Of a stretch of 24,000 nt of DNA, positions 2,427-16,294 are shown one piece after another. The notes beneath the pieces were generated by a model. The model ran no database searches. It had not been told where the DNA came from and saw only the letters and a program-made list of their open reading frames with translations. The stretch's first letter is position 1. Each line of letters begins with the position of its first letter. Both the position numbers and the translations under genes were made by a program. The stretch comes from Planctomycetota bacterium (GTDB lineage Bacteria; Planctomycetota; Phycisphaerae; UBA1845; PWPN01). The stretch lies in the NCBI GenBank assembly GCA_029550525.1, contig JAKPHF010000027.1, positions 23,839 through 47,838 on the forward strand. The letters are read 5' to 3'.

Positions 2427-2463
2427 CCTGGTGGCGGCGGTTCATGACAGCAGGGGCGAGGCT

Positions 2464-3705
2464 ATGAGCATCACACTGCATGCCGAACAGAGCGAGCCCG
2501 ATCCCGTTTCGCAGCAGGATGACGCTGTCATCGAGCGGAAGGCCTGCGGCTGGGCTCGCTCGGTGATGATCATCGCCACTGCGGTCGGGCTGATGGGCAT
2601 CGGCGCGGTCATGACGTTCTCGGCCAGCGCCCGCATCGACGCGCCCGTCGGTGACGCTTCCATCTGGGAATCGCGCGTCTTCCGCCAGATGATCTTCACC
2701 GCGGCCGGTCTGACCACCATGTTGATCGTGGCCCGTATTCCGTATCGTTTGTGGACGGCCGGCAACGGTTTAGCGGCGGCGCTCGGTTTGCTCGCGGCCG
2801 TCGTCGCGGCCTCGCTGGTGTTCGTGCCGGGTATCGGCGTCGAACGCAACGAGGCTTATCGCTGGGTGCGAATCACGGGCGACCTGGTGTTTCAGCCGTC
2901 GGAACTGGTCAAGATCATGCTTCCCATCTTCCTGGCGGTCTGGATGACGCGGGGCCTGAGTGGCCAGCCCGAGCGAGTGGCCGACGCGTTTCGTCCACGA
3001 CATGACATTCGTCATTTCACGCGCGGCTTTCTGCCCGCCGTGGCCGCCATCGGCCTGGGTGTGGGCGTGGTCGGGATCGAGGACTTCGGAACGGCGGCCC
3101 TGCTGGGCGCCGTCGGCGGGGCCATGCTCCTGGTCGGCGGAGCGCGGATTGGGCACCTGCTGCTGCTGATCCTCCCGGCCGTTCCTGCTTTCGCTTATCT
3201 GCTGTTCAGCCGGGCCCACCGCATGTCGCGCCTTCTGACCTTCCTAGACATCTGGGAGGATCCGGCCGGCAAGGGCTACCAGGCCGTTCAATCGCTTTGC
3301 ACCATCGCCAGCGGCGGCTTCTACGGCCGCGGCCTGGGACGCGGGTTTGTCAAAGGCTACCTGCCCGAAGCGCGGACAGACTTCATCTTCTCGGTCATCT
3401 GCGAGGAGCTCGGGGTGATCGGCGCGGTGGCGGTCATTGCGTTGCTCATGGCGTTCCTGTGGCAATGCCGGCTCATCATGCGCGACTGCGCCGACCCCAC
3501 GGGCAAGCTGTTGGCATTCGGAATCGCCATGACTTTCGGCATCCAAGCAGTCATGAATATCGCGGTGGTCACGGTCTCGATGCCGACTAAGGGCATTTCA
3601 CTGCCGCTGGTCTCGGCGGGCGGCTCGGGCGTGATCTTCCTCGGCGTGCTGGTGGGTGTCCTGGCGAGCATCCCCCGGTATGGCGGGATCGTGGAGCGGA
3701 GTTAA
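2464..3705 (+). CDS. ftsW: SEDS-family peptidoglycan glycosyltransferase, FtsW by dcw context (FtsW/RodA family)
   Basis: About 10 TM segments. Motifs: FQPSELVKIMLPIFLA, GIEDFGTAALL, LPEARTDFIFSVICEELG, MPTKGISLPLVSAGGSGV. I prefer the ATG at 2464 (preceded by aggggcgagg). A GTG at 2431 is an alternative start. Confidence 0.85.
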   Translation: MSITLHAEQSEPDPVSQQDDAVIERKACGWARSVMIIATAVGLMGIGAVMTFSASARIDAPVGDASIWESRVFRQMIFTAAGLTTMLIVARIPYRLWTAGNGLAAALGLLAAVVAASLVFVPGIGVERNEAYRWVRITGDLVFQPSELVKIMLPIFLAVWMTRGLSGQPERVADAFRPRHDIRHFTRGFLPAVAAIGLGVGVVGIEDFGTAALLGAVGGAMLLVGGARIGHLLLLILPAVPAFAYLLFSRAHRMSRLLTFLDIWEDPAGKGYQAVQSLCTIASGGFYGRGLGRGFVKGYLPEARTDFIFSVICEELGVIGAVAVIALLMAFLWQCRLIMRDCADPTGKLLAFGIAMTFGIQAVMNIAVVTVSMPTKGISLPLVSAGGSGVIFLGVLVGVLASIPRYGGIVERS

Positions 3706-3718
3706 GAATCGGCTGTCC

Positions 3719-3828
3719 GTTGTCAGTGGTCAGGGGTTGGGACCTTGGTCCTTTTGTCAGTTGTGTTCACAACGGACTCATGGACCACGGGCCCACAACG
3801 GACCACTGACAACTGGCCACTGACCAAT
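3719..3828. repeat. Cluster of inverted and direct repeats with an ACTGAC core in the ftsW-murG spacer
   Basis: GTTGTCAGTGGTC (3719-3731) is the exact reverse complement of GACCACTGACAAC (3801-3813). Related copies are TTTGTCAGTTGTG (3753-3765) and GGCCACTGACCAA (3816-3828). CACAACGGAC is a direct repeat at 3768-3777 and 3794-3803. Confidence 0.6.
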
Positions 3829-3843
3829 GCCAATAGCAATCCA

Positions 3844-4989
3844 ATGAGTAATCGTCCCTGGTACGTTTTTGCCGGTGGTGGCACCGGCGGACATCTGTTT
3901 CCCGGGTTGTCGGTCGTCGATTCGCTGCGGCGGATGAACGAGGCCGACGTGTCCTTCTTCTGCACCGATCGTCCGATCGATCGCGACATCCTGGGGGCGG
4001 CCGGCGTGGAGGCGGTCGTACAGACCGTGCTGCCCTTTCCGGCCAAGCCGTGGCGGTGGCCGAAGTTCCTGCTGCGATGGGGGCAATCGGTGCGGTCATG
4101 CCTGCGAGCATTTTCGGCCCGACGGCCGGCGTTCGTCGTGGGCGCGGGCGGTTACGCTTCGGGCCCGCCCGTCTACGCCGCGGCCAAACTGGCGATCCCG
4201 ACATTTCTGCTGAATCCCGACGCGGTGCCCGGCCGAGCCAACCGCCACATGGCGGTCCGGGCGAACGTTCGGTGCGTGTTCGCTCAGTGGGAGGTCACAC
4301 GGCAACACTTTCCGGCCGGTGTGCCCATCGAGGTCAGCGGCTGTCCGGTGCGGCCGGCGTTCCGGCGAGCGGCTGGCTTGGCACCGGAGGCAATTCGGGA
4401 ATCGTTCGGGCTCGATCCGCATCGGCCTATGCTTCTGGTCACGGGAGCGTCGCAAGGGGCTCGGACAATCAATGAGGCCATGCTGACACTGGCAGGGGCG
4501 GTGGCGGCCGCTGATTGGCAGGTGCTTCATCTGAGCGGGGCGACCGATGCCGAGCGAGTCGAGCAGGCGTACCGGCAGTCGAACACGGGCCTGCGTTACC
4601 GCGTACTGGCGTTCACGGATCGCATGCCCGAGGCCATGGCCGCCGCCGACCTGATCATCTCGCGGGCGGGGGCTTCGACACTGTCGGAGATCCAGGCCAT
4701 GGGCAAACCGTCGGTGTTGTTCCCGTACCCGTACCACCGGGACCAGCATCAGCGTCATAACGCGGCTGTTCTGGCCGAGGCTGGAGCTGCCGTCCTCCTG
4801 GACGACGCCAAAGACGCCACGGCCAACGCCGCACAACTGGGCCCCGTTCTGGCCCGGCTCATGGGTGACGCCGCCGAGCGCGAGCGGATGGCGCGTGCCG
4901 CGTCGAGTCTGGACGTGCCCGACAGCGCGGATCGTATCGCGGCGCGCCTGTTGGAAGTGAGCCAACAAGGCGAAAAATTGCAGCGATAG
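3844..4989 (+). CDS. murG: UDP-N-acetylglucosamine--N-acetylmuramyl-(pentapeptide) pyrophosphoryl-undecaprenol GlcNAc transferase MurG
   Basis: Motifs: VFAGGGTGGHLFPG near the N-terminus, GAGGYASGP, LLVTGASQGARTINEA, IISRAGASTLSEI. The ATG at 3844 puts the G-loop at the family-typical position. The track start at 3745 would add 33 non-conserved residues encoded by the repeat-rich spacer. Confidence 0.9.
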   Translation: MSNRPWYVFAGGGTGGHLFPGLSVVDSLRRMNEADVSFFCTDRPIDRDILGAAGVEAVVQTVLPFPAKPWRWPKFLLRWGQSVRSCLRAFSARRPAFVVGAGGYASGPPVYAAAKLAIPTFLLNPDAVPGRANRHMAVRANVRCVFAQWEVTRQHFPAGVPIEVSGCPVRPAFRRAAGLAPEAIRESFGLDPHRPMLLVTGASQGARTINEAMLTLAGAVAAADWQVLHLSGATDAERVEQAYRQSNTGLRYRVLAFTDRMPEAMAAADLIISRAGASTLSEIQAMGKPSVLFPYPYHRDQHQRHNAAVLAEAGAAVLLDDAKDATANAAQLGPVLARLMGDAAERERMARAASSLDVPDSADRIAARLLEVSQQGEKLQR

Positions 4990-5156
4990 TGCGTGGATCA
5001 TTGCGTGTGACGAATCCGGCCGGACGGTCCACGCATCATGCCGTAAATGGTTCAAGCAAACACGCTTAAAAGCCCGATAAAACAAGCCTATTGGGTGCGT
5101 TTTTGAGTTCCACTCGCAACCGGGGAAGTGAATTACCACAACTGTCGGTTTCTTGC

Positions 5157-5185
5157 TTGGAACACGCTCGCCCATGGATTAACAT
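5157..5185 (+). promoter_or_regulatory. Weak candidate internal promoter upstream of murC
   Basis: TTGGAA (5157-5162), 17-nt spacer, TAACAT (5180-5185), in the lower-GC part of the murG-murC gap. Hexamer match only. Confidence 0.25.
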
Positions 5186-5368
5186 GTGAGCCCGAGTCGG
5201 CCAGGGCGCGACGGCCGACGACGATTGCCAGTCGGCTGGGGAAAGGGCCGGCCCATCAATCGCAACTGTGGCACCGGTCAAGGCTCTGGCGGGGACGGAC
5301 GACATCTGCAACCTTGGAGTCCCCGGTGATGTTGCTTCGCTTAACCGTCGTCTATAGGGAACACACAG

Positions 5369-6973
5369 ATGGATCGAAGCGCAAGGACGCGCTGCCTGTC
5401 TGATCGCGGCACAAAGCTGGAATACCATCCGCTCGGAGGCAACGGCAACGGGCATGGTAACGGCAACGGGGGCAAGGTGATCGTGCGCGCCGTGTCCGAG
5501 ACTCGCCAGCACGACGGTTCCGCGGCCGGCTCGCTTGACACGCCCGCGGAGTGGACGGCTCGCGGCAAGCGGGTGCATCTGATCGGCATCGGCGGGTGCG
5601 GCATGTCCGGGGCGGCGGCCGTCCTGCAGCGGCGCGGCGCCGTGGTCAGCGGCTCGGATCGCGTCGACTCGGCCGTGCTCCAGCGGCTGGCCGAGCAGGG
5701 CGTGAACGTGTTCATCGGCCAGAAGGGCGAGAACGTCCCCGCGTCCTGCGACTTGGTCGTTTGCTCCGCGGCGGTTAAGGAGTCCAATCCCGAACTGCAG
5801 GCCGCTCGACGCAACGGTGCCCGCGTCGTCAAATACGCTCAGTTGCTCGGGCTGCTCATGCGGGAGTTCGAAGGTGTGGCCATCGCCGGCACGCACGGCA
5901 AGAGCACCACGTCGGCCATGGTCAGCTACGTCCTGCGCGAGGTAGGTCTCGACCCCTCGTTCGTCATCGGGGCGGGTGTCGAACAACTCGGCGGTGGCTC
6001 CGGTGTCGGTTCGGGCCGGCAGTTCGTCGTCGAGGCCTGCGAGTACGATCGCTCGTTCCACAACCTCAGGCCGCGGATCGCCACCATTCTCAACATCGAG
6101 GAAGATCACCTCGATTACTATCGCGATCTCGACGAAATCATCGAGTCGTTCCGGACGTTCGCCCAACTGCTGCCGGCCGATGGTCTGCTGGTGGTCAACG
6201 GCGATGACCGCAACGCCATGCGGGCGGCCGCGGACATTCCCGCCGAGGTCCAGACCTTCGGGTTCGGCGGTGCGGCCGATTGGCAGCCGCGCATCCTGGA
6301 GACTGTGCAGGGCCGCTTCCGCTTCGAGGTGCTCTTCCGCGGCCAGCGAGTGGCCGAGATCATGATGGGCATTCCGGGCCGCCACAACGTGAGCAACGCT
6401 CTGGCGGCGATGGCTGTCTTCGCGCGATGCGGCGTGGATCTGCAAGCGGCGGCCGAGGCGGTCGGCCGGTTCCGCGGGGCGCAGCGCCGGCTCACGTTGC
6501 GCGGCACTGAGGCGGGCGTGCACGTCGTGGACGATTACGCCCATCACCCGACCGAGATTCAGGTCACGCTCAAGGCCGCTCGCGAGTTCTACACGCCGCG
6601 CAAGATGTTCGTGGTCTTCCAGCCGCACCAGCATTCGCGAACGCGGTTCTTGCTCAACGACTTTGCCCGCAGCTTTTCGGCGGCCGACGTCGTCGTCGTG
6701 CCGGACATCTATTTCGTGCGGGACAGTGAGTCCGAACGGGAGTTGGTGGCCGCCACCGACCTGGTGAACGAGATTCACCGCAACGGCGGCGAGGCCCGGT
6801 ACGAGCCGGATTTCGGTCGGATTGTGGCCATGCTGTGCGACGAGGTGCAGCCGGGCGATCTGGTGATCACCATGGGCGCGGGCAACGTTTGGCAGATCGC
6901 CGACAGCCTGCTGGCCGAATTGAAGGAAAAGAACGCCCAGCCGCGGAATATTACCCCCGCGACGGCGGGCTAG
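5369..6973 (+). CDS. murC: UDP-N-acetylmuramate--L-alanine ligase MurC (start codon uncertain)
   Basis: Motifs: VHLIGIGGCGMSGAA, AIAGTHGKSTTSAM, EACEYDRSF, NIEEDHLDYY, GRHNVSNALAA, DDYAHHPTEI. The conserved core begins about 65 codons after the ATG at 5369. The extension contains GGNGNGHGNGNGG, encoded by ggcaac-type repeats at 5439-5471. A GTG at 5477 is an alternative start. Confidence 0.9.
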   Translation: MDRSARTRCLSDRGTKLEYHPLGGNGNGHGNGNGGKVIVRAVSETRQHDGSAAGSLDTPAEWTARGKRVHLIGIGGCGMSGAAAVLQRRGAVVSGSDRVDSAVLQRLAEQGVNVFIGQKGENVPASCDLVVCSAAVKESNPELQAARRNGARVVKYAQLLGLLMREFEGVAIAGTHGKSTTSAMVSYVLREVGLDPSFVIGAGVEQLGGGSGVGSGRQFVVEACEYDRSFHNLRPRIATILNIEEDHLDYYRDLDEIIESFRTFAQLLPADGLLVVNGDDRNAMRAAADIPAEVQTFGFGGAADWQPRILETVQGRFRFEVLFRGQRVAEIMMGIPGRHNVSNALAAMAVFARCGVDLQAAAEAVGRFRGAQRRLTLRGTEAGVHVVDDYAHHPTEIQVTLKAAREFYTPRKMFVVFQPHQHSRTRFLLNDFARSFSAADVVVVPDIYFVRDSESERELVAATDLVNEIHRNGGEARYEPDFGRIVAMLCDEVQPGDLVITMGAGNVWQIADSLLAELKEKNAQPRNITPATAG

Positions 6974-7060
6974 AGGCGACGCCGGCCGGTGTGGAGATGC
7001 AGGTTTCCAGCCTGCCTCAGAATGCCGGCAGGCGAGTCGCACCAAAGCGAAACTGCGATC

Positions 7061-9082
7061 ATGAACGAGCTCCGCTCATATGCGTTTCTCGCCGATGAGG
7101 CGGCAGTTGGTACGGTCGAGCGAGATCGACCGCTGGCGCCGCTGACGCGCTATCGCCTGGGGGGCCGGGCCGAGTGCCTCGTGCGCCCGCAGAATCTCGA
7201 GCAGCTCGCCGAGCTCATCAAACGCTGCCGTCGCGAGAACGTGCCGGTGCGGATCCTGGGCGGCGGGGCGAACCTGCTGGTAGACGACGACGGCGTGGAC
7301 GGCGTCGTGGTGCGGCTCGACGCGCCGTTCTTCAAGCAGGTCGAGTACTGGGAGGCCGAGGGCTCGGGCAACGGCACCCCGCAGGGACGCGGACCGGTGC
7401 GGGTGCGCGCCGGTGCCGGCGTGGACATGGCTCGGCTGACGCTCGCTTCCGTACGCCGAGGCTTGAGCGGGCTGGAGTGCATGGCCGGCATCCCCGGGAC
7501 GCTTGGCGGCTGCATCCGGATGAACGCGGGCGGCCGCTGGGGCGAAATCGGCAACGTCGTCCGCGAGGTCGTGGTCATCGATGCTGACGGTGAGCTCCGG
7601 ACGCTCGATCGCGAGCAGGTCGGCTTCAGCTATCGGCACACCCGGTTGGGCGACGCCGTCATCTGCTCGGCCACGCTCGAACTCATGCCCGGCGATCCGC
7701 AGGAGATCCAGGCTCGCTACCAGGAGATTTGGAACATCAAGCAGGCCGGTCAGCCGTTGGGTGCTCACAGTGCGGGTTGCGTGTTCAAGAACCCGCCGGG
7801 TGACAGTGCCGGCCGTCTCATCGATGCCGCCGGTCTCAAGAACCGCCAGGTGGGCGGGGCGTTGGTCTCGCCCGAGCATGCGAACTTCATCGTCGCCCGC
7901 GAGGGGGGAACGGCTGGCGACGTGCTCGACCTCATCGATCTCGTGCGGCGTACGGTTGCCGAGAAGTTCTCGGTCAATCTGGAGCTGGAGATCGAGGTAT
8001 GGCGCGGGCGCGGCAAGCGGCTGACCCCGGGTCCGCAAAGCGACCTGTCCGCCATCGAACCGTCAGCCGTCATTCCCGCCGGCAGGACGCCGGCCGCCAA
8101 CGAAACGGAGTCTTCCATGACGCGCCTTGCTCGTCAACCCGTGGCCAGGACGCCCGCGAAAGCCGAAACCCGACGGACGCTGGCCATCACCGTGCTGTCC
8201 GGTGGTCCCAGTAGTGAACGCGAGGTCAGCCTCAAGAGCGGCCGAGCCGTCGCGGCGGCGCTCGAGTCGCTCGGCCACCACGTGACGGTCTGCGACATCG
8301 CGCCCGACAAGCTCGACGCGCTGGAGATTCCGGCCGACCTGGTGTTCATCGCGCTGCACGGCGCGTTCGGCGAGGACGGGCGTGTGCAGAGTCTGCTCGA
8401 AGAACGCGGCATCCGCTACACCGGTTCGGGCGCGGCCGCTTCCGCGCTGGCCATGGACAAAGTGGCCACCAAGCGTCGATTCGTCGAAGCCGAAGTGCCC
8501 ACGCCCCAGTTCGAAGTGGTCACCGCTGCCGACATCGACCGAGTGGTGCAGACGTGGCAATTGCCGGTGGTGGCCAAGCCGATCGCCGAGGGCAGCAGTA
8601 TCGACATTCGGATCATCCGCGATGCCCAAACGCTGCGGTCCGAGCTCCAGCGGTTGACGGCTCGCTACGGCCAGTGCCTGCTCGAATCGTTCGTGGACGG
8701 ATACGAGTTGACCGTGGGCATCCTGGGCACACAGGCGTTGCCGCCCATCGAGATCCGCACCCGCCGCGAGTTCTACACTTACGAAGCCAAGTATCTCGAC
8801 GACGATACGGAGTATCGTTTCGATATCGACCTGCCGCCGGCGGTCCTGGCGGAGGTGCAGGCGCTGAGCGTTCGCGCTCACCAGGCCCTGGGGTGTCGGC
8901 ACTTCTCGCGGGTCGATTGGCTGGTGGACCGCCGGACGCATCAGCCGTACGCACTGGAGGTAAACACCATCCCCGGCTTTACCGACCACTCGCTTCTGCC
9001 CAAGGCGGCGGGTCGGGCGGGGCTGAGCTTCCCGCAGTTGTGCGAGCGCATCATCGAGCTGGCCTATGGCCAGAACGACTGA
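7061..9082 (+). CDS. murB/ddl: Single ORF encoding UDP-N-acetylenolpyruvoylglucosamine reductase (MurB, ~7061-8005), a linker (~8006-8170) and D-alanine--D-alanine ligase (Ddl, ~8171-9082)
   Basis: MurB part: VRILGGGANLLVDD, MAGIPGTLGGCIRMNAGG, SAGCVFKNPPG, SPEHANFIV. Ddl part: VLSGGPSSEREVSLKSG, FIALHGAFGEDGRVQSLLE, ASALAMDKVATK, EVNTIPGFTDHSLLPKAA. There is no in-frame stop between the two parts. I prefer the ATG at 7061; ATGs at 6989 and 7022 are alternatives. Confidence 0.85.
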   Translation: MNELRSYAFLADEAAVGTVERDRPLAPLTRYRLGGRAECLVRPQNLEQLAELIKRCRRENVPVRILGGGANLLVDDDGVDGVVVRLDAPFFKQVEYWEAEGSGNGTPQGRGPVRVRAGAGVDMARLTLASVRRGLSGLECMAGIPGTLGGCIRMNAGGRWGEIGNVVREVVVIDADGELRTLDREQVGFSYRHTRLGDAVICSATLELMPGDPQEIQARYQEIWNIKQAGQPLGAHSAGCVFKNPPGDSAGRLIDAAGLKNRQVGGALVSPEHANFIVAREGGTAGDVLDLIDLVRRTVAEKFSVNLELEIEVWRGRGKRLTPGPQSDLSAIEPSAVIPAGRTPAANETESSMTRLARQPVARTPAKAETRRTLAITVLSGGPSSEREVSLKSGRAVAAALESLGHHVTVCDIAPDKLDALEIPADLVFIALHGAFGEDGRVQSLLEERGIRYTGSGAAASALAMDKVATKRRFVEAEVPTPQFEVVTAADIDRVVQTWQLPVVAKPIAEGSSIDIRIIRDAQTLRSELQRLTARYGQCLLESFVDGYELTVGILGTQALPPIEIRTRREFYTYEAKYLDDDTEYRFDIDLPPAVLAEVQALSVRAHQALGCRHFSRVDWLVDRRTHQPYALEVNTIPGFTDHSLLPKAAGRAGLSFPQLCERIIELAYGQND

Positions 9083-9138: not shown

Positions 9139-10023
9139 ATGGGTGGAGAATCCTTGAGTCGCAAGGTCAAGAAAAAGCGAAAGTCCAGAGCGCAGGAACG
9201 CTCGCACGAACCGCGCCTTGCCGGATTCGGCCCGCTGTTGCCGGTGGCCGGCGTCTTGACGGTGATCGTGCTGAGCATCTGCGGCCTGGAGTGGCTGCGC
9301 GGCCAGGTGCTGTCGAATCCGAAGTACAACCCCGAGCCGAAGATTCAGCTCGAATATCTGCCCGGCTCGGAGTGGGTTCAGCAGGAAGGCTGGTTGCCTC
9401 GCATTCAGGCGTCCATCCGGCTGCCCGACAAACCCTACATGGACGACAAGCTGCTCGAAGAGGTGGCTCAGCAGGTGGCGGCCACCGGCTGGGTGCGCCG
9501 GGTGTTGCAGGTCGAGCGCGGGATGGACGGGACCATCCGCGTCTGCTGCGACTATCGCCGCCCGATCGCCATGGTGCTGACCAACCGTGGCAAGTACATC
9601 CCGGTGGACAAGGACGGTGTGCGGCTACCCGAGGAATATGAGCGAGTGGAGGCTGACTCGGGTTGGATGCGCATCCTGGGCGTGCAGACCGAGCCGCCGC
9701 CGGTCGGAGGCTCCTACGAGAAGTTCCGCGGCGAGAAATGCGACGGGGCACATGCCGTGCGACTCGCGTTTCTGCTGTTCAGCCAACCGGAGACGGGCGA
9801 CAAAATCACCGGTATCGACGTCTCGAACTGCAGCGATATCATGTTGTACACCCGCGACGGCGGGAAATTCCGGTGGGGTTCGGCTATCGGATGCGAGGTC
9901 GAGGAACCCGAGCCGGCCTATAAATTGCGGAACCTCGCGCTCACTCTCAGGACAAGCTCCCCTCAGGCCTGCGCCGACCTCACCGTTTATCGGAACGGGG
10001 TTCTGGTACACTCCGGGCCGTGA
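9139..10023 (+). CDS. ftsQ: Cell division protein FtsQ/DivIB-like (bitopic, POTRA-containing)
   Basis: Basic cytoplasmic tail (KVKKKRKSRAQER), one TM segment (FGPLLPVAGVLTVIVLSICGL), then a POTRA-like block (LLEEVAQQVAATGWVRRVLQVERGMDGTIRVCCDYRRPIAMV...YIPVDKDGVRLP). The C-terminal end (KLRNLALTL...ADLTVYRNGVLV) resembles the FtsQ beta domain. It sits in the canonical position after ddl. Confidence 0.7.
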   Translation: MGGESLSRKVKKKRKSRAQERSHEPRLAGFGPLLPVAGVLTVIVLSICGLEWLRGQVLSNPKYNPEPKIQLEYLPGSEWVQQEGWLPRIQASIRLPDKPYMDDKLLEEVAQQVAATGWVRRVLQVERGMDGTIRVCCDYRRPIAMVLTNRGKYIPVDKDGVRLPEEYERVEADSGWMRILGVQTEPPPVGGSYEKFRGEKCDGAHAVRLAFLLFSQPETGDKITGIDVSNCSDIMLYTRDGGKFRWGSAIGCEVEEPEPAYKLRNLALTLRTSSPQACADLTVYRNGVLVHSGP

Positions 10024-10078
10024 GCCCTAAAGTCCAGCGGGCGATCGCCCGAAGAAGGCAGAATTAGCCGCATCAGGC

Positions 10079-10106
10079 TTGCGTTGAATGTTAGATTAGG
10101 TAATCT
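10079..10106 (+). promoter_or_regulatory. Weak candidate promoter upstream of the membrane-protein pair
   Basis: TTGCGT (10079-10084), 16-nt spacer, TAATCT (10101-10106), inside the only AT-richer patch of the ftsQ-downstream spacer. Hexamer match only. Confidence 0.25.
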
Positions 10107-10139
10107 GGCAGTCCCGCCACACGTGGCGAGAGGTGCTGG

Positions 10140-10952
10140 ATGCTGGATTTGCGCAAAACGCTGGAGCTGTTGGGTTGGGCGCGGGAGCTGTACGCCGGCT
10201 CGACGGGGACGGCGCCGGCTTGGCTGGACTCGTTCTGGGCGGCCGCCACGGCCGTTGTTATCGGGTTCATCCTGGCGTTTTGGGGCGGCCGCGTCCTGCG
10301 CGTCGGGTTCGTTTTCGCGTTCATGGCCGTCGGAGCCATCCTGGGCAAGGAGTTCGCCAGCTCGGTCCAGGTCGATCTACTGATCGGGCTGGTAGTGGGG
10401 GCCGGCGTGGCCGGAGCCATCGGCTACGTCGTTTATCGGTGGTGCCTGGGGATGACGGTGGCGCTGGTCGCCTCGCTGATTGTGGCGGCGACGTTTAGTG
10501 CCCCGGCCCTGCTGAACGAGCGGCAGGCGTTCGAGGACTTTCGATTGGGCGTGGGAACGGGCGAGTATCTCACGACGGGGACGACGCTGTACTCCTGGGC
10601 CACCGTGCGGGACTACTTCTGGGAACAGCCGCACGGTCGAGAGGTCACGGTCAAAGTTCTCGGGCCGGTGGCTCTGACTGCCCTCGTCGGCTTCGTGCTG
10701 AGCGTGCTGGCGCCACGGTTTGCGTCGATCCTGGCGACGTCCATCCTGGGATCGGCTCTGCTTGTGACCGGCGCAGGGGTGTTGCTTGCCAGTCGCTGGC
10801 CGGACCTGTGGTTATGGGTCCAGGAGCACGGCGGCTGGGCGGGGGCAGGGGTCATCTGCATCTGGCTGTGTTCGGTGTCGTACCAAACGACACATCCCGC
10901 GCGGCCCGCACTCCAGGCGCCGCTCGTGCCCTCGCCGGCTCCGGCGAGTTGA
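10140..10952 (+). CDS. Polytopic inner-membrane protein of unknown function (possibly DUF4203 / TM7S3-TM198-like), paralog A
   Basis: 270 aa with about 6-7 hydrophobic segments and a ~50 aa soluble insert (LLNERQAFEDFRLGVGTGEYLTTGTTLYSW...). Contains the motif GGRVLRVGFVFAFMAVGAILG. SD-like gagagg lies ~6 nt before the ATG. Codon third positions are GC-rich in this frame. Confidence 0.6.
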   Translation: MLDLRKTLELLGWARELYAGSTGTAPAWLDSFWAAATAVVIGFILAFWGGRVLRVGFVFAFMAVGAILGKEFASSVQVDLLIGLVVGAGVAGAIGYVVYRWCLGMTVALVASLIVAATFSAPALLNERQAFEDFRLGVGTGEYLTTGTTLYSWATVRDYFWEQPHGREVTVKVLGPVALTALVGFVLSVLAPRFASILATSILGSALLVTGAGVLLASRWPDLWLWVQEHGGWAGAGVICIWLCSVSYQTTHPARPALQAPLVPSPAPAS

Positions 10953-11022
10953 ACCGGCCCCGGCTTGTTCGAGTGGGTCGTGGGACGCCGATCGTTGACC
11001 AGTCATTGACAGGGGGGACTCA

Positions 11023-11646
11023 ATGATCACGCTGAATGTACCGTTCATCGTCGATGAGCTGGCCCGGCAGGAGATTGTCGTCGGTGGCTTTCTATTGGCC
11101 ACCGGCCTGTTGTTCATGCTCATGGGCCTGCGCTTGTCCCGGATGCTGGTGGCCCTGAGCTACGGCGTGATCGGGTTTGTCCTGGGCTGCAGCGTGCCGG
11201 CGCCGGACGAGGCTCGTATCGCGGCGGGAATGATCACCGCCCTGGGGCTGGCGGGCGCGAGCGTGTGCGTGGTCCGGCCGGCGGTGGCCGTCCTCGCCGG
11301 ATCCTGGGCAGGATTTGTGACCTTCCTGCTGGTCAGCAGGCTGGCCGCCGTTGACGATCCTATCGCCCTGGCCGTCGGCGGCGTCGTGTTCCTTGCCGCG
11401 GCGTCCATCACGTATGTCATGCTCCAGGAGATTATCGCCCTCGTCACCAGCCTCGAAGGCACACTTCTGTTCCTGGGCGGGCTCATCATCCTGATGAATC
11501 AGAGCCCGGTGTTCTGGACACACATGCGGAATCTGCTCGTCTCGAACGCGGTTTTCGGGCCCTTCCTCGTGCTGGCCGGAACGGTGATCGGCTACTACAC
11601 GCAAGTCGCCGAGCAGCAGAAGAAGAGTGCCGGGCGATCGGGGTGA
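11023..11646 (+). CDS. Polytopic inner-membrane protein of unknown function, paralog B of 10140-10952
   Basis: 207 aa with about 6 hydrophobic segments. It has the motif GLRLSRMLVALSYGVIGFVLG, with the same R-x-x-R-x10-G-x-[IV]-L-G spacing as paralog A. A second shared block is IIALVTSLEGTLLFLGGLIIL versus SILATSILGSALLVTGAGVLL. SD-like gggggga precedes the ATG. Confidence 0.6.
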   Translation: MITLNVPFIVDELARQEIVVGGFLLATGLLFMLMGLRLSRMLVALSYGVIGFVLGCSVPAPDEARIAAGMITALGLAGASVCVVRPAVAVLAGSWAGFVTFLLVSRLAAVDDPIALAVGGVVFLAAASITYVMLQEIIALVTSLEGTLLFLGGLIILMNQSPVFWTHMRNLLVSNAVFGPFLVLAGTVIGYYTQVAEQQKKSAGRSG

Positions 11647-11907
11647 GGCGATCGTTGCTTTACGAGGCTTGTGCCGCGACGCCGACAGAAGGCGTCTCCA
11701 CTCCATAGCAAGTAGCGCGCGCGTGAATTCCCCCAAATGACGGAGCGTCTATGCGCGCCGGCCGCGTCCGTGCTAAGCTAGGGCAGTTTTGTGCCGTTTC
11801 CGCCGAATCAGCGGTCTCAGGGAGCGGGCGTTTTGCGCCCGCCTGAGGCGGACAAGATGTCCGCCCCCCGAAATGCGGCAAGAGGACGGATGCGGAGATC
11901 ATCGCCC

Positions 11908-12696
11908 ATGGAATCGCAACTTGGCGTCGTATTGGACAGCTTTCGTCAACTCCCGAGAGAGGCCTTGCAGTCGGCGGCGCAGCTCGGTTTTCGCAAGGTC
12001 GAGATGCCGGCCGTCTCCGGGCCGGTCGCTCCCACCGAACTGACCGGCACGGGCCGGCGGCACCTGTCGAAATTCGTGAGCAGCCTGGGGCTGGAACTGT
12101 CGGCCCTGGGCGGTGATCTGGGCGGTACCCGCTTCACCGATAGCTCGAAGCTCGAACAATCGCTCGAGAAGACTCGAGCCATCCTCGAAATGGCCCGCGA
12201 TTTGCGCGTTCCCGTGGTGACCACGCATTTGGGGCCGATCACCGAAGCCGATCTGCAGGAGGGCTATCTGGTGGAAGCCGTTGAACAATTGGCTGACTGG
12301 TCCGACCGCACGGGCACGTTCGTCGCGTTCGAGACCGCCGGCGCCGACCCCGCCCGCTTCGCGGATCTGCTTCGGCGCATCAACTCGCCGACGTTGGGCA
12401 TGTGCTACGATCCGGCCAGCCTGTTGATCGACGGCTTCGAACCGCTGGCCGGCATCGAGCCGGTGGCCAACACCATCCTCCTCGCCCGGGCTCGCGACGC
12501 TCTGGCCGGCTCGTCGCAGCGTCCCGGCCGCGAAGTGCCGTTGGGCGAGGGCCAGATCGACTGGCCGGAGTATCTGGCCGCTCTCGATCAGGCGGGCTAC
12601 CGTAACGTGCCATTCATTCGGCGCACAGAAGCCCGACGCCCGCTCGAAGAACTCGCCGACGCCAAGCGCAAGCTGGAGCGACTCGTCAGGGCATGA
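11908..12696 (+). CDS. Sugar phosphate isomerase/epimerase-like protein (xylose isomerase-like TIM barrel family)
   Basis: About 262 aa from the ATG at 11908 (MESQLGVVLDSFRQLP...GFRKVEMPA). Pattern typical of AP-endonuclease-2/xylose-isomerase-like TIM barrels: VVTTHLG, VAFETAG, GMCYDPASLL, EGQIDWPEYLAALDQAGY. The track start at 11791 adds an Arg-rich, unlikely extension. Confidence 0.55.
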   Translation: MESQLGVVLDSFRQLPREALQSAAQLGFRKVEMPAVSGPVAPTELTGTGRRHLSKFVSSLGLELSALGGDLGGTRFTDSSKLEQSLEKTRAILEMARDLRVPVVTTHLGPITEADLQEGYLVEAVEQLADWSDRTGTFVAFETAGADPARFADLLRRINSPTLGMCYDPASLLIDGFEPLAGIEPVANTILLARARDALAGSSQRPGREVPLGEGQIDWPEYLAALDQAGYRNVPFIRRTEARRPLEELADAKRKLERLVRA

Positions 12697-12805: not shown

Positions 12806-14560
12806 CTATCGTGGCTCGACGAGTCGCAGTTCGACGTTCTTGCCCATGGCGGGCACCGGGATGGTTACCGTATCGGTGGTTCGAGAGGGAGCGTTCTCAT
12901 AGCGGTATGTGACCAGCGAGACGTCGTCCCAGGTAGGATCCTCGCACGCGAGCGGCTGCGTGAAGACTCGCTCGAACCTGCTGGCGTCGGCGACCAGCTC
13001 GCGCAGCATGAGCCGCGGCGGCGTGTCCCATGAGCGGTCCTCGTCCGGGGCCGGCTGATCCGGTCGCGAAGCGGTGGGCAGACGATCCTCGAGCACGATG
13101 TAACGGATGCCCAGGCGATCGAGCAATTCCACGATATCCGCCGGCGATTCCACGTGCTGTGCGTAGCTGTAACGTGTGCGGGCAGCTCGGGAGTACAGTA
13201 GCTTGCTGGCTCGCATGGGGATGAGCCGTGCTGTTCGGTCCGGCTCGCCATCGAGCCGCCGCACATCGAAGATGAACTGACCGTCGCGAACGGCATCGAT
13301 GAGCACGAGATCGGCATCGGGCCGGCCGGCCAGATAGTCGACGGTCGGGCGCATATCGACCAGGCGTTGAGCCGGCGCGACAATCGCACCGATGCCGGCC
13401 GCAAGCAGAAGTAGAATGCTCAGCACGGCGGGTATGATGGAGACAGCCCGCCGAGGCCTGGCGCCTATCAGCCGCGCGACGTCGGCGCCGAACATCAACG
13501 CCACCGCGGGCGCGGCGAAGAACAGATAGCGTTCCTCCTTGGCGCAGATGAGCGTGGAGATCAGCCACCAGCCACCCGCCCATAGCACGAGTAGAACCAG
13601 TCCTCCCGGCGGACGCGCGGGAGCAGTGTCGGATGCGGATCGGCCCGCCACCAGCCGGCCGGTCAGGGCCGCCGCCAGGCCGAGCAGCATGGGCCAGCCG
13701 AGAATGCTTGGTGTTCGTGCCAGGTACCACGTCCAGTGTTCGAGCGTCAGCAGGTGTCGCCAGGGCGGCGTGCCGGCGACCAGTTGCGGGGCCAGCGCGT
13801 TCAAGCCGGCGGTGGCTCGCCCATAGGCGAAGATGATTGCCGCGGCCAGCGCCATCGGCACGACGAACTCCACTCGGCGGATGAGCTTCCACTGTCGCAG
13901 CAAGATCACGTGAGCGACGATCACCGGCAGGACGAATGCCGCGGTCTGCTTCGTGAGGTACGCGCCCGCACAGCCGACGGCCGTCAGCAGGCCCCATCGC
14001 CAGCCGGGCGAGCGCAGGCAGCGAACGTACGCCAGCAGGGCGAGGGCGATCCAAAACGTCGCCGGCCATTCGAGCATGACTTGCCGAGACCAGCTCACAC
14101 TGGCGGGCGTGACGATCGCGGCCAATGCTCCGATGAGGCCCGCCGTCGTGCCGAACAACTCGCGGCCGAGGAGGAACAACAGCCACACCGCGCCGACAAC
14201 GAACAACAGGACGGTCAATCGGGCGGCCAGAACCGAAATGCCCAACAGCAGAAACACCACTGCTTCGACCGCCGCGAACAGCGGCGGGTAGTACACCAGG
14301 ATGCCCAGGCATTGATGCTTCAGATAGTACTGTTCGGCCCATGCCTTCCACGCGCCGCTCGGCCATTCGCGCACGAGGTCGTGGAGGAACACGCCGTCCA
14401 TGGCGTGCAGCGGCGCATCGGACCAGGAGAATCCGCCGACGTGGATGTCGCGAGCGGCAATCACGCACGTGCACAGCAGGAGCGCCGCGAGACACAAGAA
14501 CGTGGTTCGCTTGCGGGGTTCGCGAATCGCAGGAAGGACAGAGGGGTCTGACATGGCCAA
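12806..14560 (-). CDS. GT-C fold membrane glycosyltransferase (family 39/83, ArnT/PMT-like) with a C-terminal soluble domain
   Basis: 584 aa. The N-terminal ~390 aa have 10 or more TM segments, with an acidic first periplasmic loop (SWSDAPLHAMDGVFLHD) and the YYPPLF...LTKQTA pattern typical of ArnT-like enzymes. The C-terminal ~190 aa are hydrophilic. Confidence 0.7.
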   Translation of the reverse strand: MAMSDPSVLPAIREPRKRTTFLCLAALLLCTCVIAARDIHVGGFSWSDAPLHAMDGVFLHDLVREWPSGAWKAWAEQYYLKHQCLGILVYYPPLFAAVEAVVFLLLGISVLAARLTVLLFVVGAVWLLFLLGRELFGTTAGLIGALAAIVTPASVSWSRQVMLEWPATFWIALALLAYVRCLRSPGWRWGLLTAVGCAGAYLTKQTAAFVLPVIVAHVILLRQWKLIRRVEFVVPMALAAAIIFAYGRATAGLNALAPQLVAGTPPWRHLLTLEHWTWYLARTPSILGWPMLLGLAAALTGRLVAGRSASDTAPARPPGGLVLLVLWAGGWWLISTLICAKEERYLFFAAPAVALMFGADVARLIGARPRRAVSIIPAVLSILLLLAAGIGAIVAPAQRLVDMRPTVDYLAGRPDADLVLIDAVRDGQFIFDVRRLDGEPDRTARLIPMRASKLLYSRAARTRYSYAQHVESPADIVELLDRLGIRYIVLEDRLPTASRPDQPAPDEDRSWDTPPRLMLRELVADASRFERVFTQPLACEDPTWDDVSLVTYRYENAPSRTTDTVTIPVPAMGKNVELRLVEPR

Positions 14561-14578
14561 CCGTCCAAGACGCCGGAT

Positions 14579-16294
14579 TCACGCGAACGAGATATCGATC
14601 ACTTGCATCTCGACGCTCACGCGGCCGTTGAACTCGTTGAGGCACGGCTCGTAGGCCACCCGGCACTGCCGCCGGACGCGCAGGGCTTCCAGCTTGTCCG
14701 CCTGGTCGAAGGCGATCGCCTTCATACGGCATCGGCCGTCGGTCAGGCAGAACTGGAGATGATTCGCACTCCTGCCCACCGCCCGCGGCTCCCCGTCCAG
14801 GTGCAGCACGGGCGAGGCGAACTTCGGTTTGTGGTTGCCCGCTCCGAAAGGCCCCAGCTTCTCGACCTCCCGGGCGAGTTGCACCGACCAGACGCTCGGG
14901 CCCGCCTCGGCATCGAGGTGAAGCGTCGGCTCCAGATCGCGGGCGGTCAGCGTTCGGTTGGCTCGCTCGACGAAATGCTCGGTGAACTCCTCCAACTTGC
15001 TGCGTTTGACGCGCAGTCCGGCGGCCATGGCGTGTCCGCCGTAGGTCAGAAGGTGATGGGCGCACTCTGCCAATGCCTTGTGCAGATCGAAATTGGGGAT
15101 GCTGCGGCCCGAGCCCTGGCCCTCGCCGTTGTCGAGCGAGATCATGAGCGTGGGCCGGCCGAACCGCTCGACCAGTCGCGACGCCACGATCCCGATCACG
15201 CCCGCGTGCCAGCCCTCGCCGGCCACCACGATGGCTCGCCGTGCGTCGGTGGCCAGCTTACGCTCCTGCACGATCTCGACCGCCTCGTTGAAGATCCGCC
15301 GTTCCAGGTTCTGGCGGCTGCGGTTCTGCTCCTCAAGGTACTGGGCGATTTCGCGGGCCCGCTTCTCGTCGGCTCGGGTGAGCAGTTCGGCGGCGAGCTG
15401 GGCGTGGCCCATCCGGCCGGCGGCGTTGAGCCGTGGAGCCAGCCAGAAGCCCACGTGATCGCTGTTGAGCTTCTGGTCGGCCAGCCGGGCTGACTCGATC
15501 AGCGCCGCGATCCCGCTCAGCTTGGACGCCTTCAGGTTCGCCAGGCCATAGCGAGCCAGCACCCGGTTCTCGCCCAGCAGCGGTACCACATCGGCGATCG
15601 TGCCCAAGGCCACCAGGCCCATCGCGCTGGTCAGGAATTCGCGAAACTCGGGTGACACTTTTTCGGCATTGCTGAGGTGCTTGGCGATGGCCCAGGCGAG
15701 CTTGAACGCCACGCCCGCCCCGCACAGGTCGTGGTTGGGATACTTGCCTTCGAGCCCGGGGTGCACGACCACGTGAGCGTCGGGCAGTGTGCTGCCCGGC
15801 CGGTGGTGATCGGTGATGACGGTGGTCAAGCCCAGGTCGCGGGCGAGGCGAATTTCTTCCACCGCCGTGATGCCGCAATCCACGGTAATGAGCACGTCGT
15901 AACCGTCGCGGGCAAGCTGGCGGACGGCATCGGCGTTCAGTCCGTAGCCTTCGTCGATGCGGTGGGGGATGTAGAACGAGACGTCAGCCCCGGCCAGCGT
16001 CAGCAGATGCCAAAGGATGGCCGTGCCCGTGATGCCGTCCACGTCATAGTCGCCGTAGATGACAATCCGCTTGCCCTCGTGCATCCGGGCGACGATGAGG
16101 GCGGCCGCCTCCTTGGCTCCCGGCAGTTCCTCGGGGGCGTGCAGCATGCTCATCCGCGGCTCGAGAAACGCCTTCATGGCTTCGGGCCGGTCGAGCCCGC
16201 GGTTGAACAGGAGCTGGACAATGAGCGGGTGGACCCCCAGCCGCCGGGCCATGCTTTCGCATCCCGGCCAGGGCTGCTTGATGATCCACTGCAT
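14579..16294 (-). CDS. recJ: Single-stranded-DNA-specific exonuclease RecJ
   Basis: DHH/DHHA1 motifs: IYGDYDVDGITGTAIL, LITVDCGI, VITDHHRPG, TYGGHAMAAGL. The ATG at 16294 is preceded by GGAGG at a 3-nt spacing. The track start at 16321 is a TTG. Confidence 0.9.
   Translation of the reverse strand: MQWIIKQPWPGCESMARRLGVHPLIVQLLFNRGLDRPEAMKAFLEPRMSMLHAPEELPGAKEAAALIVARMHEGKRIVIYGDYDVDGITGTAILWHLLTLAGADVSFYIPHRIDEGYGLNADAVRQLARDGYDVLITVDCGITAVEEIRLARDLGLTTVITDHHRPGSTLPDAHVVVHPGLEGKYPNHDLCGAGVAFKLAWAIAKHLSNAEKVSPEFREFLTSAMGLVALGTIADVVPLLGENRVLARYGLANLKASKLSGIAALIESARLADQKLNSDHVGFWLAPRLNAAGRMGHAQLAAELLTRADEKRAREIAQYLEEQNRSRQNLERRIFNEAVEIVQERKLATDARRAIVVAGEGWHAGVIGIVASRLVERFGRPTLMISLDNGEGQGSGRSIPNFDLHKALAECAHHLLTYGGHAMAAGLRVKRSKLEEFTEHFVERANRTLTARDLEPTLHLDAEAGPSVWSVQLAREVEKLGPFGAGNHKPKFASPVLHLDGEPRAVGRSANHLQFCLTDGRCRMKAIAFDQADKLEALRVRRQCRVAYEPCLNEFNGRVSVEMQVIDISFA

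Follow-up and report, generated by a model that had tools for sequence, protein, structure and literature searches.

The gene cluster for division and the cell wall (dcw) of a Planctomycetota bacterium is followed after ftsQ by two co-directional genes for membrane proteins with seven predicted helices, here called TM-A and TM-B. They lie in a 24,000-nucleotide stretch of assembly GCA_029550525.1 (contig JAKPHF010000027.1, positions 23,839 to 47,838; hereafter the window), where ftsQ occupies 9139-10023, TM-A 10140-10952 and TM-B 11023-11646, all on the + strand. Profile comparisons show TM-A and TM-B to be paralogues from an old tandem duplication in the DUF4203 superfamily, and the order ftsQ-TM-A-TM-B is kept in about 90% of the informative related loci, down to an FtsQ identity of about 27%. 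The new element is the fixed two-paralogue pair with its conserved attachment to a cryptic ftsQ in a lineage without FtsZ; the domain family itself is already known, though uncharacterised. No report of the ftsQ-TM-A-TM-B arrangement was found in the literature. A tentative reading is offered here in which the pair serves envelope growth or division, as a partner in the membrane for those late divisome proteins that are retained.

Conservation of the gene order

A preliminary description of this stretch had placed two hydrophobic membrane-protein open reading frames (ORFs) of 270 and 207 amino acids, rather than ftsA and ftsZ, next after ftsQ. Both ORFs were recovered at the positions of TM-A and TM-B, and no ftsA or ftsZ domain was detected among the window ORFs scanned with Pfam. 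Gene identities in the related loci (designated by L numbers) were confirmed by hidden Markov model (HMM) scans. The order murC, murB, ddl, ftsQ, TM-A, TM-B recurred on contigs with TM-A at 71, 53, 44, and 33% identity to that of the window. The same ftsQ-TM-A-TM-B order was present on a contig with TM-B at 45% identity, in one Phycisphaerales metagenome-assembled genome (MAG), on two further contigs, and in L014, whose TM-B is about 26% identical to that of the window. A genome scan with a TM-B motif added two species genomes, one of them the complete chromosome CP070790.1; the pattern used was narrow, hence just these two matched. All loci from L001 to L006 and from L009 to L014 carry ftsQ, TM-A, and TM-B in that order.

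An unbiased sample was obtained by anchoring metagenome loci on the ftsQ family alone, which yielded 56 loci (52 non-redundant) with FtsQ identities of 27-51%. Loci were counted as informative if at least 400 nucleotides followed ftsQ (n = 38) or TM-A (n = 19). TM-A was the next gene after ftsQ in 34 of the 38 loci and TM-B the next gene after TM-A in 17 of the 19, so the synteny on which the earlier proposal depended held across many related lineages. In this same-strand adjacency across divergent genomes, TM-A and TM-B are placed like members of the dcw operon. Neither ftsA nor ftsZ appeared in the Pfam lists of the annotated loci or among the genes scanned beside the four ftsQ loci that lack the pair.

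Paralogy and family assignment

Two motifs that had been quoted as shared by the proteins are present as written. The first reads R51-x2-R54-x10-G65-x-I-L-G69 in TM-A and R37-x2-R40-x10-G51-x-V-L-G55 in TM-B, and the second T200-S-x2-G204-x6-G211 and T142-S-x2-G146-x6-G153, respectively. The shared residues fall on invariant or at least 90% conserved columns of each family alignment, with W48, G49, R51, L53, R54, G65, G69, T200, G204, and G211 conserved in TM-A and G35, R37, G51, T142, S143, G146, and G153 conserved in TM-B.

Pairwise BLASTP between TM-A and TM-B was marginal (E 0.03). A comparison by hhalign of the TM-A family alignment (A1) with the narrow TM-B family (A2) gave a score of 36, a probability of 53%, and E 1.3e-4 over 149 colinear columns, while reversed controls scored 18-22 and 120 block shuffles averaged about 18 and never exceeded 30.9. 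When A1 was compared with the broad TM-B alignment (A5), the probability rose to 96.7% (E 3.8e-10, 188 columns). This alignment pairs TM-A 33-264 with TM-B 19-207, covers all predicted helices, and leaves TM-A residues ~124-175 as an insertion. The broad TM-B HMM also gives TM-A proteins up to about 50 bits. Because the profile comparisons beat the shuffle and reversal controls and the comparison with A5 is strong, the tandem duplication suggested earlier is well supported. That the resemblance is a compositional similarity of unrelated hydrophobic proteins, as the BLASTP value and the first hhalign probability could be taken to mean, is refuted by the lower score of every control, the colinear A5 alignment, and the independent link of each family to PF13886, and has next to no probability left.

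The Pfam family PF13886 (TM7S3/TM198-like, formerly DUF4203) has a gathering cut-off of 29.2 bits on the whole-protein score. TM-A matched it below this cut-off, at 23.1 bits (E 6.7e-5, profile positions 2-162 of 199), and 10 of 20 members of its family matched at E<=1. For TM-B, no direct Pfam match was obtained at E<=0.1. A HMMER profile search with the TM-B family retrieved 461 cluster representatives at E<=1e-3, of which 210 reached E<=1e-10. PF13886 was matched at E<=0.1 by 60 of the 109 relatives scanned (best E 3.8e-9), and three of ten inspected relatives exceeded the cut-off (P0221, P0241, and P0205 with 30.0, 35.6, and 30.4 bits, respectively). Two TM-B relatives are named by NCBI as 'DUF4203 domain-containing protein [Phycisphaerae bacterium]'. 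TM-A and TM-B themselves do not reach the gathering cut-off; through intermediate sequences and profiles, both are homologous to genuine PF13886 members. The family guess of the preliminary description, DUF4203 or TM7S3-TM198-like, was therefore right at the superfamily level. Organism names were carried by 2 of 30 clusters, both Phycisphaerae. The named relatives are Phycisphaerae or Phycisphaerales MAGs, and the lineage is Planctomycetota. No paper mentioning DUF4203 was found in the literature.

Topology of TM-A and TM-B

In both proteins, seven transmembrane (TM) helices with the N-terminus outside and the C-terminus inside would agree with the hydropathy and with the way charge alternates between loops in the family alignments. 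This topology is the positive-inside rule applied to loop charges and not the output of a dedicated predictor. TM-A differs from its paralogue by a conserved insertion of about 53 amino acids (residues 121-173) between TM4 and TM5, which would be periplasmic given the N-out/C-in orientation indicated by the loop charge bias. The largest non-membrane segment in the two proteins measures about 53 amino acids. Neither Pfam nor NCBIfam detected a nucleotide-binding or polymer-forming cytoplasmic domain in TM-A or TM-B, the kind of domain by which a functional analogue of FtsA or FtsZ would be recognised.

A sequence-cryptic FtsQ

The 294-amino-acid product of 9139-10023 is divergent in sequence. 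It gave no Pfam match even at E<=10 across five orthologues and no NCBIfam match, and in profile searches against PDB sequences nothing rose above noise (ribosomal protein S8, for example, came up at E 0.04-0.1). None of the sequence profiles that define FtsQ/DivIB (POTRA_1, FtsQ_DivIB_C, and the NCBIfam FtsQ model) recognised it. Among 78 homologues none carries a Pfam domain or the name FtsQ, and any name given is 'hypothetical protein'; part of them belong to MAGs that bear the label Phycisphaerales, Planctomycetes, or Planctomycetota.

The protein has the bitopic architecture of FtsQ/DivIB, in which a basic, cytoplasmic N-terminal tail is followed by one hydrophobic TM helix (residues 26-57) and a C-terminal domain of about 235 amino acids with a predicted POTRA plus beta fold. 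An AlphaFold2 model built from 45 homologues reached a pLDDT of 89.6 and a pTM of 0.78. In a Foldseek search against the PDB, its top nine matches were all FtsQ (2vh2, 5z2w, 8hhf, 6h9o, 2vh1, 8bh1), with E 5.8e-8 to 3e-4, a probability of 1.0, and identities of 12-21%, and the next matches were Omp85/BamA POTRA domains. The gene lies directly after ddl, the dcw position of ftsQ, in the window and in every longer related locus. Since the model matches FtsQ structures and the gene sits after ddl, 9139-10023 is, on the predicted fold, a genuine but sequence-cryptic ftsQ. It had been named ftsQ before, correctly, and predicted structure and position are the sole grounds for the name. Because sequence profiles fail to detect the FtsQ of this lineage, presence/absence tables based on COG or Pfam may undercount it. 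All Planctomycetota are reported to have lost ftsB (PMC12673574).

The region upstream of TM-A

The gap between ftsQ and TM-A has a median of 102 nucleotides (range 19-296) across the related loci, and that between TM-A and TM-B a median of 51 nucleotides. In the window, the former is a spacer of 116 nucleotides (10024-10139) in which no terminator-like site was found. An AT-rich block ending about 40 nucleotides before the start codon is conserved in this otherwise variable spacer. In the window this block reads TGTTAGATT (10089-10097, + strand), an extended -10-like promoter element 42 nucleotides before the TM-A start codon. A sigma-70 consensus scan of the spacer returned no site, and the element emerged solely from the comparison of multiple loci. 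TGnTATAAT was matched at 7 or more of 8 positions in 10 of 43 distinct loci (500 shuffles: mean 1.0, maximum 4) and at 6 or more in 26 of 43 (shuffles: mean 8.4, maximum 16). Most of these matches fall 24-48 nucleotides before the TM-A start codon, and the longer -10-like motif occurs once per locus, at this position only, in the loci compared. Further downstream, a Shine-Dalgarno-like GAGGTG (10130-10135, + strand) precedes the ATG by 4 nucleotides; AGGT is invariant in a five-locus alignment and recurs in most TM-A upstream regions.

The conserved element suggests that the pair probably has its own promoter, which strengthens the earlier caveat of a separate transcription unit. Read-through from ftsQ is possible, and some co-transcription is suggested because certain ftsQ-TM-A gaps measure only 19-47 nucleotides and no terminator is seen. 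A possible 5' leader stem, in which AATCTGGCA pairs with TGCTGGATG (10103-10142, + strand), was predicted by RNAfold at -18.7 kcal/mol. It includes the TM-A start codon and an inner CGCCA/TGGCG hairpin, and could be a leader for translational control. The same outer stem forms in L001, L002, L030, L026, and L017; both arms are invariant and hold no covarying positions. Folding of the whole spacer was no better than that of shuffles (z = -1.27).

The spacer also contains a perfect 14-bp palindrome, CGGGCGATCGCCCG (10038-10051). It is exact, as had been described, but has no T-run and is absent from the relatives L002, L003, and L005, and it was rejected as a terminator or conserved element. In the more distant clade (L048, L049, L052, L053, L062, L063, L066, L068, L070), three elements were observed about 30-80 nucleotides before TM-A: first a box resembling GAATATTAC, next one resembling CGAATA, and then an extended -10 close to consensus, which in most cases reads TGGTAGAAT. 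Together these could be a conserved regulator-binding site plus a promoter.

Possible functions of the pair

Under the reading tentatively favoured here, TM-A and TM-B would form a heteromeric inner-membrane complex, as the same fixed order and the retention of the pair away from the dcw cluster suggest. The TM-A insertion would share the periplasm with the POTRA/beta domain of FtsQ and with the peptidoglycan synthases, and a promoter of its own would drive the pair, perhaps supplemented by read-through from ftsQ. The complex may then have a part in the growth of the envelope or in division, most plausibly that of a membrane scaffold or of a partner to the retained late divisome (FtsQ, FtsW, and the transpeptidase of FtsW). 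That it generates force in place of FtsZ is unlikely, because neither protein has a cytoplasmic domain able to polymerise or to hydrolyse nucleotides.

Several observations weigh against this reading. The division or envelope role is drawn from linkage, and the linkage has gaps. Four ftsQ loci are without the pair (L047, L058, L064, L067), with just opposite-strand genes (AbiEii-like, HEPN, FG-GAP) or no identifiable gene after ftsQ; TM-A occurs without TM-B in L039 and L053, and a lone TM-B relative in L007 and L008. In L016 (1579-3456), the pair lies beside pheA and nuo genes on an 8-kb contig with no dcw genes, the TM-A-like protein of 329 amino acids with a long acidic loop insertion and the TM-B-like protein of 251 amino acids being encoded side by side. 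The linkage to ftsQ breaks there, so TM-A and TM-B are tied more tightly to each other than to ftsQ, beside which one large clade keeps them as a rule. A promoter-like element of its own also means that the pair need not be co-regulated with ftsQ. The AlphaFold2 model of TM-A is moderate (pLDDT 72.5, pTM 0.54), with helix pairs drawn as single long helices, and found no Foldseek match in the PDB better than E 2.5. To our knowledge, no DUF4203 member has a known function in bacteria. Most dcw genes, including ftsQ, are non-essential in Planctopirus limnophila (PMC12283558), so adjacency to ftsQ does not imply importance for division.

The interpretation in the preliminary description, that genes in the slot vacated by ftsA and ftsZ are candidate components of an FtsZ-independent division or envelope-remodelling apparatus, therefore stands in part. 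Its paralogy, superfamily, synteny, and lack of nearby ftsA or ftsZ are borne out; its division role is a reading of linkage, and the 'vacated slot' is a positional description only. Its own caveat that the adjacency may be coincidental gains force from the off-cluster pair in L016 and the four ftsQ loci without the pair. In two of these four (L047, L064), AbiEii-type nucleotidyltransferase or HEPN toxin-like genes come next after ftsQ on the opposite strand, which suggests mobile defence or toxin-antitoxin cassettes inserted at the cluster end.

Nearly as likely as the favoured reading is that TM-A and TM-B make up a membrane module of general purpose, such as a complex that handles small molecules or ions or serves membrane homeostasis, and play no part in division. 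The position of this module behind ftsQ would then be historical, left for example by deletion of ftsA-ftsZ from an ancestral ftsQ-ftsA-ftsZ-TM-A-TM-B order or by a single insertion, and kept by the stability of the dcw cluster. The conserved promoter-like element of TM-A, the off-cluster pair in L016, the lone TM-B relatives beside glycosyltransferase genes in L007 and L008, and the four ftsQ loci that end without the pair all agree with such a module. So do the breadth of PF13886, which includes eukaryotic proteins unlinked to division, and the missing nucleotide-binding or polymer-forming soluble domain in TM-A and TM-B. However, about 90% of loci retain the order in spite of a divergence of TM-A and TM-B to about 25-30% identity, which exceeds the usual neutral persistence, and the short ftsQ-TM-A gaps without a terminator point to at least some co-transcription.

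A stronger form of the favoured reading is unlikely. It holds that Phycisphaerae-type planctomycetes would have an FtsZ-independent divisome whose membrane core, heteromeric and specific to the lineage, is made of TM-A and TM-B. Through the conserved TM-A loop this core would contact the periplasmic domain of the cryptic FtsQ, and it would position or activate FtsW-dependent septal wall synthesis.

Less probable again is a strong version of the earlier proposal, a direct replacement of FtsA and FtsZ, with the pair as organiser or constriction machinery of FtsZ-independent fission. The pair does occupy the ftsA-ftsZ position of other bacteria, in a phylum without both, and is strongly linked to ftsQ. 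Yet both proteins are almost wholly embedded in the membrane, their largest soluble segment is predicted to be periplasmic, and no ATPase, GTPase, or filament-type domain is present. Some related ftsQ loci do without the pair, and the closest relatives, by the few NCBI names, are Phycisphaerae MAGs.

Very unlikely, finally, is a flippase-like or carrier-recycling role, in which the pair would act on a lipid-linked precursor of the cell wall or on some other substrate of the envelope and would be placed in the cluster as murG and ftsW are. The position of polytopic proteins beside peptidoglycan precursor genes would suit this role, as would the conserved polar residues inside helices (T-S-x2-G of TM6, and Q where TM7 ends), the GT2 glycosyltransferase genes adjoining the lone TM-B relative in L007, and the PMT_2-type glycosyltransferase gene that is often nearby. 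Against it, Pfam and NCBIfam show no similarity to the MurJ, MOP, SEDS, DedA, or UppP families, no intramembrane charged residue is conserved across the superfamily, and glycines make up most of the conserved features, a sign of helix packing.

Other features of the window

The co-directional series upstream of ftsQ was confirmed by Pfam, and all of its genes lie on the + strand. It opens with murF (1-1221; Mur_ligase_M and Mur_ligase_C), whose frame is open from base 1, its 5' end being cut by the window edge. This gene is followed by mraY (1281-2426; Glycos_transf_4 and MraY_sig1), the SEDS-family gene ftsW (2431-3705; FTSW_RODA_SPOVE, E 4e-78), murG (3745-4989; Glyco_transf_28 and Glyco_tran_28_C), and murC (5369-6973; Mur_ligase, Mur_ligase_M, and Mur_ligase_C). 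The last gene before ftsQ is a murB-ddl fusion, a single ORF of 697 amino acids (6989-9082; FAD_binding_4, MurB_C, Dala_Dala_lig_N, and Dala_Dala_lig_C). The same fusion occurs in L001 (675 amino acids). In L002, L003, L005, and L011-L013, murB and ddl are separate genes, and the fusion is therefore taken to be recent.

Between mraY and ftsW, murD is absent, in the window as in the related loci that reach that far, and it must lie elsewhere or be missing. The murG-murC gap (4990-5368, 379 nucleotides) holds no convincing ORF and no Rfam match, as the Rfam scan of the whole window gave none. A gap of about 220-510 nucleotides is found at the same place in L001, L002, L003, L005, L011, L012, and L013, and could contain a promoter, a leader, or a small unannotated gene.

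TM-B is followed by a xylose-isomerase-like TIM-barrel gene (11791-12696, + strand; AP_endonuc_2, E 2e-26). This gene is also next after TM-B in L001, L002, L005, and L006 and is absent there in L003, L011, and L012, which makes it often, not always, the next gene; in L009, an ORF matched by size alone takes this place. A putative ORF of 722 amino acids at 12897-15065 (- strand) has no Pfam or NCBIfam match and shares about 490 nucleotides with recJ at the 3' end of the latter. At the equivalent place, L001, L005, and L012 carry a PMT/PMT_2 glycosyltransferase gene. Elsewhere the window codes for RecJ, for an oxidoreductase and an M48 peptidase, and for two further proteins, one with DUF2961 and one of the N_methyl/DUF1559 kind that is typical of planctomycetes.

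Comparison with known systems

The division of planctomycetes in the absence of FtsZ is acknowledged to be an open problem (PMC12673574, PMC12283558, PMC5147048), and Phycisphaerae retain the rest of the dcw cluster (PMC12673574, PMC12283558). Earlier surveys mainly catalogue which canonical division genes are present or lost. TM-A and TM-B offer a concrete, testable lead, with synteny as the one basis of the functional claim. If the reading as a divisome core were true, this would be the first function assigned to any bacterial DUF4203 protein; if the pair were unrelated to division, two new DUF4203 subfamilies and a clear conserved linkage for the family would still have been gained.

The eukaryotic members of PF13886 include TMEM198 and TM7SF3. 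TM-A and TM-B have in common with the family some 200 amino acids of seven predicted helices, and differ from it as a fixed two-paralogue pair beside ftsQ, TM-A with its lineage-specific loop of 53 amino acids. As the bacterial members are without a known function, the family offers no mechanism for the pair.

We know of no report of a linked DUF4203 pair in Chlamydia. This FtsZ-less member of the PVC superphylum is reported to keep an FtsQ that escapes routine annotation (PMC4643143). The window is similar in belonging to a PVC lineage without FtsZ and in having a cryptic FtsQ, detectable in its case by fold only. The chlamydial work differs in that it concerns FtsQ and FtsL themselves (PMC4643143).

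Up to ftsQ, the window has the gene order of the classical dcw cluster, whose 3' end reads ddl-ftsQ-ftsA-ftsZ in species such as E. coli and Verrucomicrobium spinosum. Genes co-directional with ftsQ follow it in both, without a terminator after ftsQ and with a promoter-like element inside the cluster; the E. coli dcw cluster has internal ftsQ, ftsA, and ftsZ promoters. In contrast to the classical arrangement, the window has no murD between mraY and ftsW, its murB and ddl are fused, and where ftsA and ftsZ would follow ftsQ, it carries two integral membrane proteins without a cytoplasmic domain.

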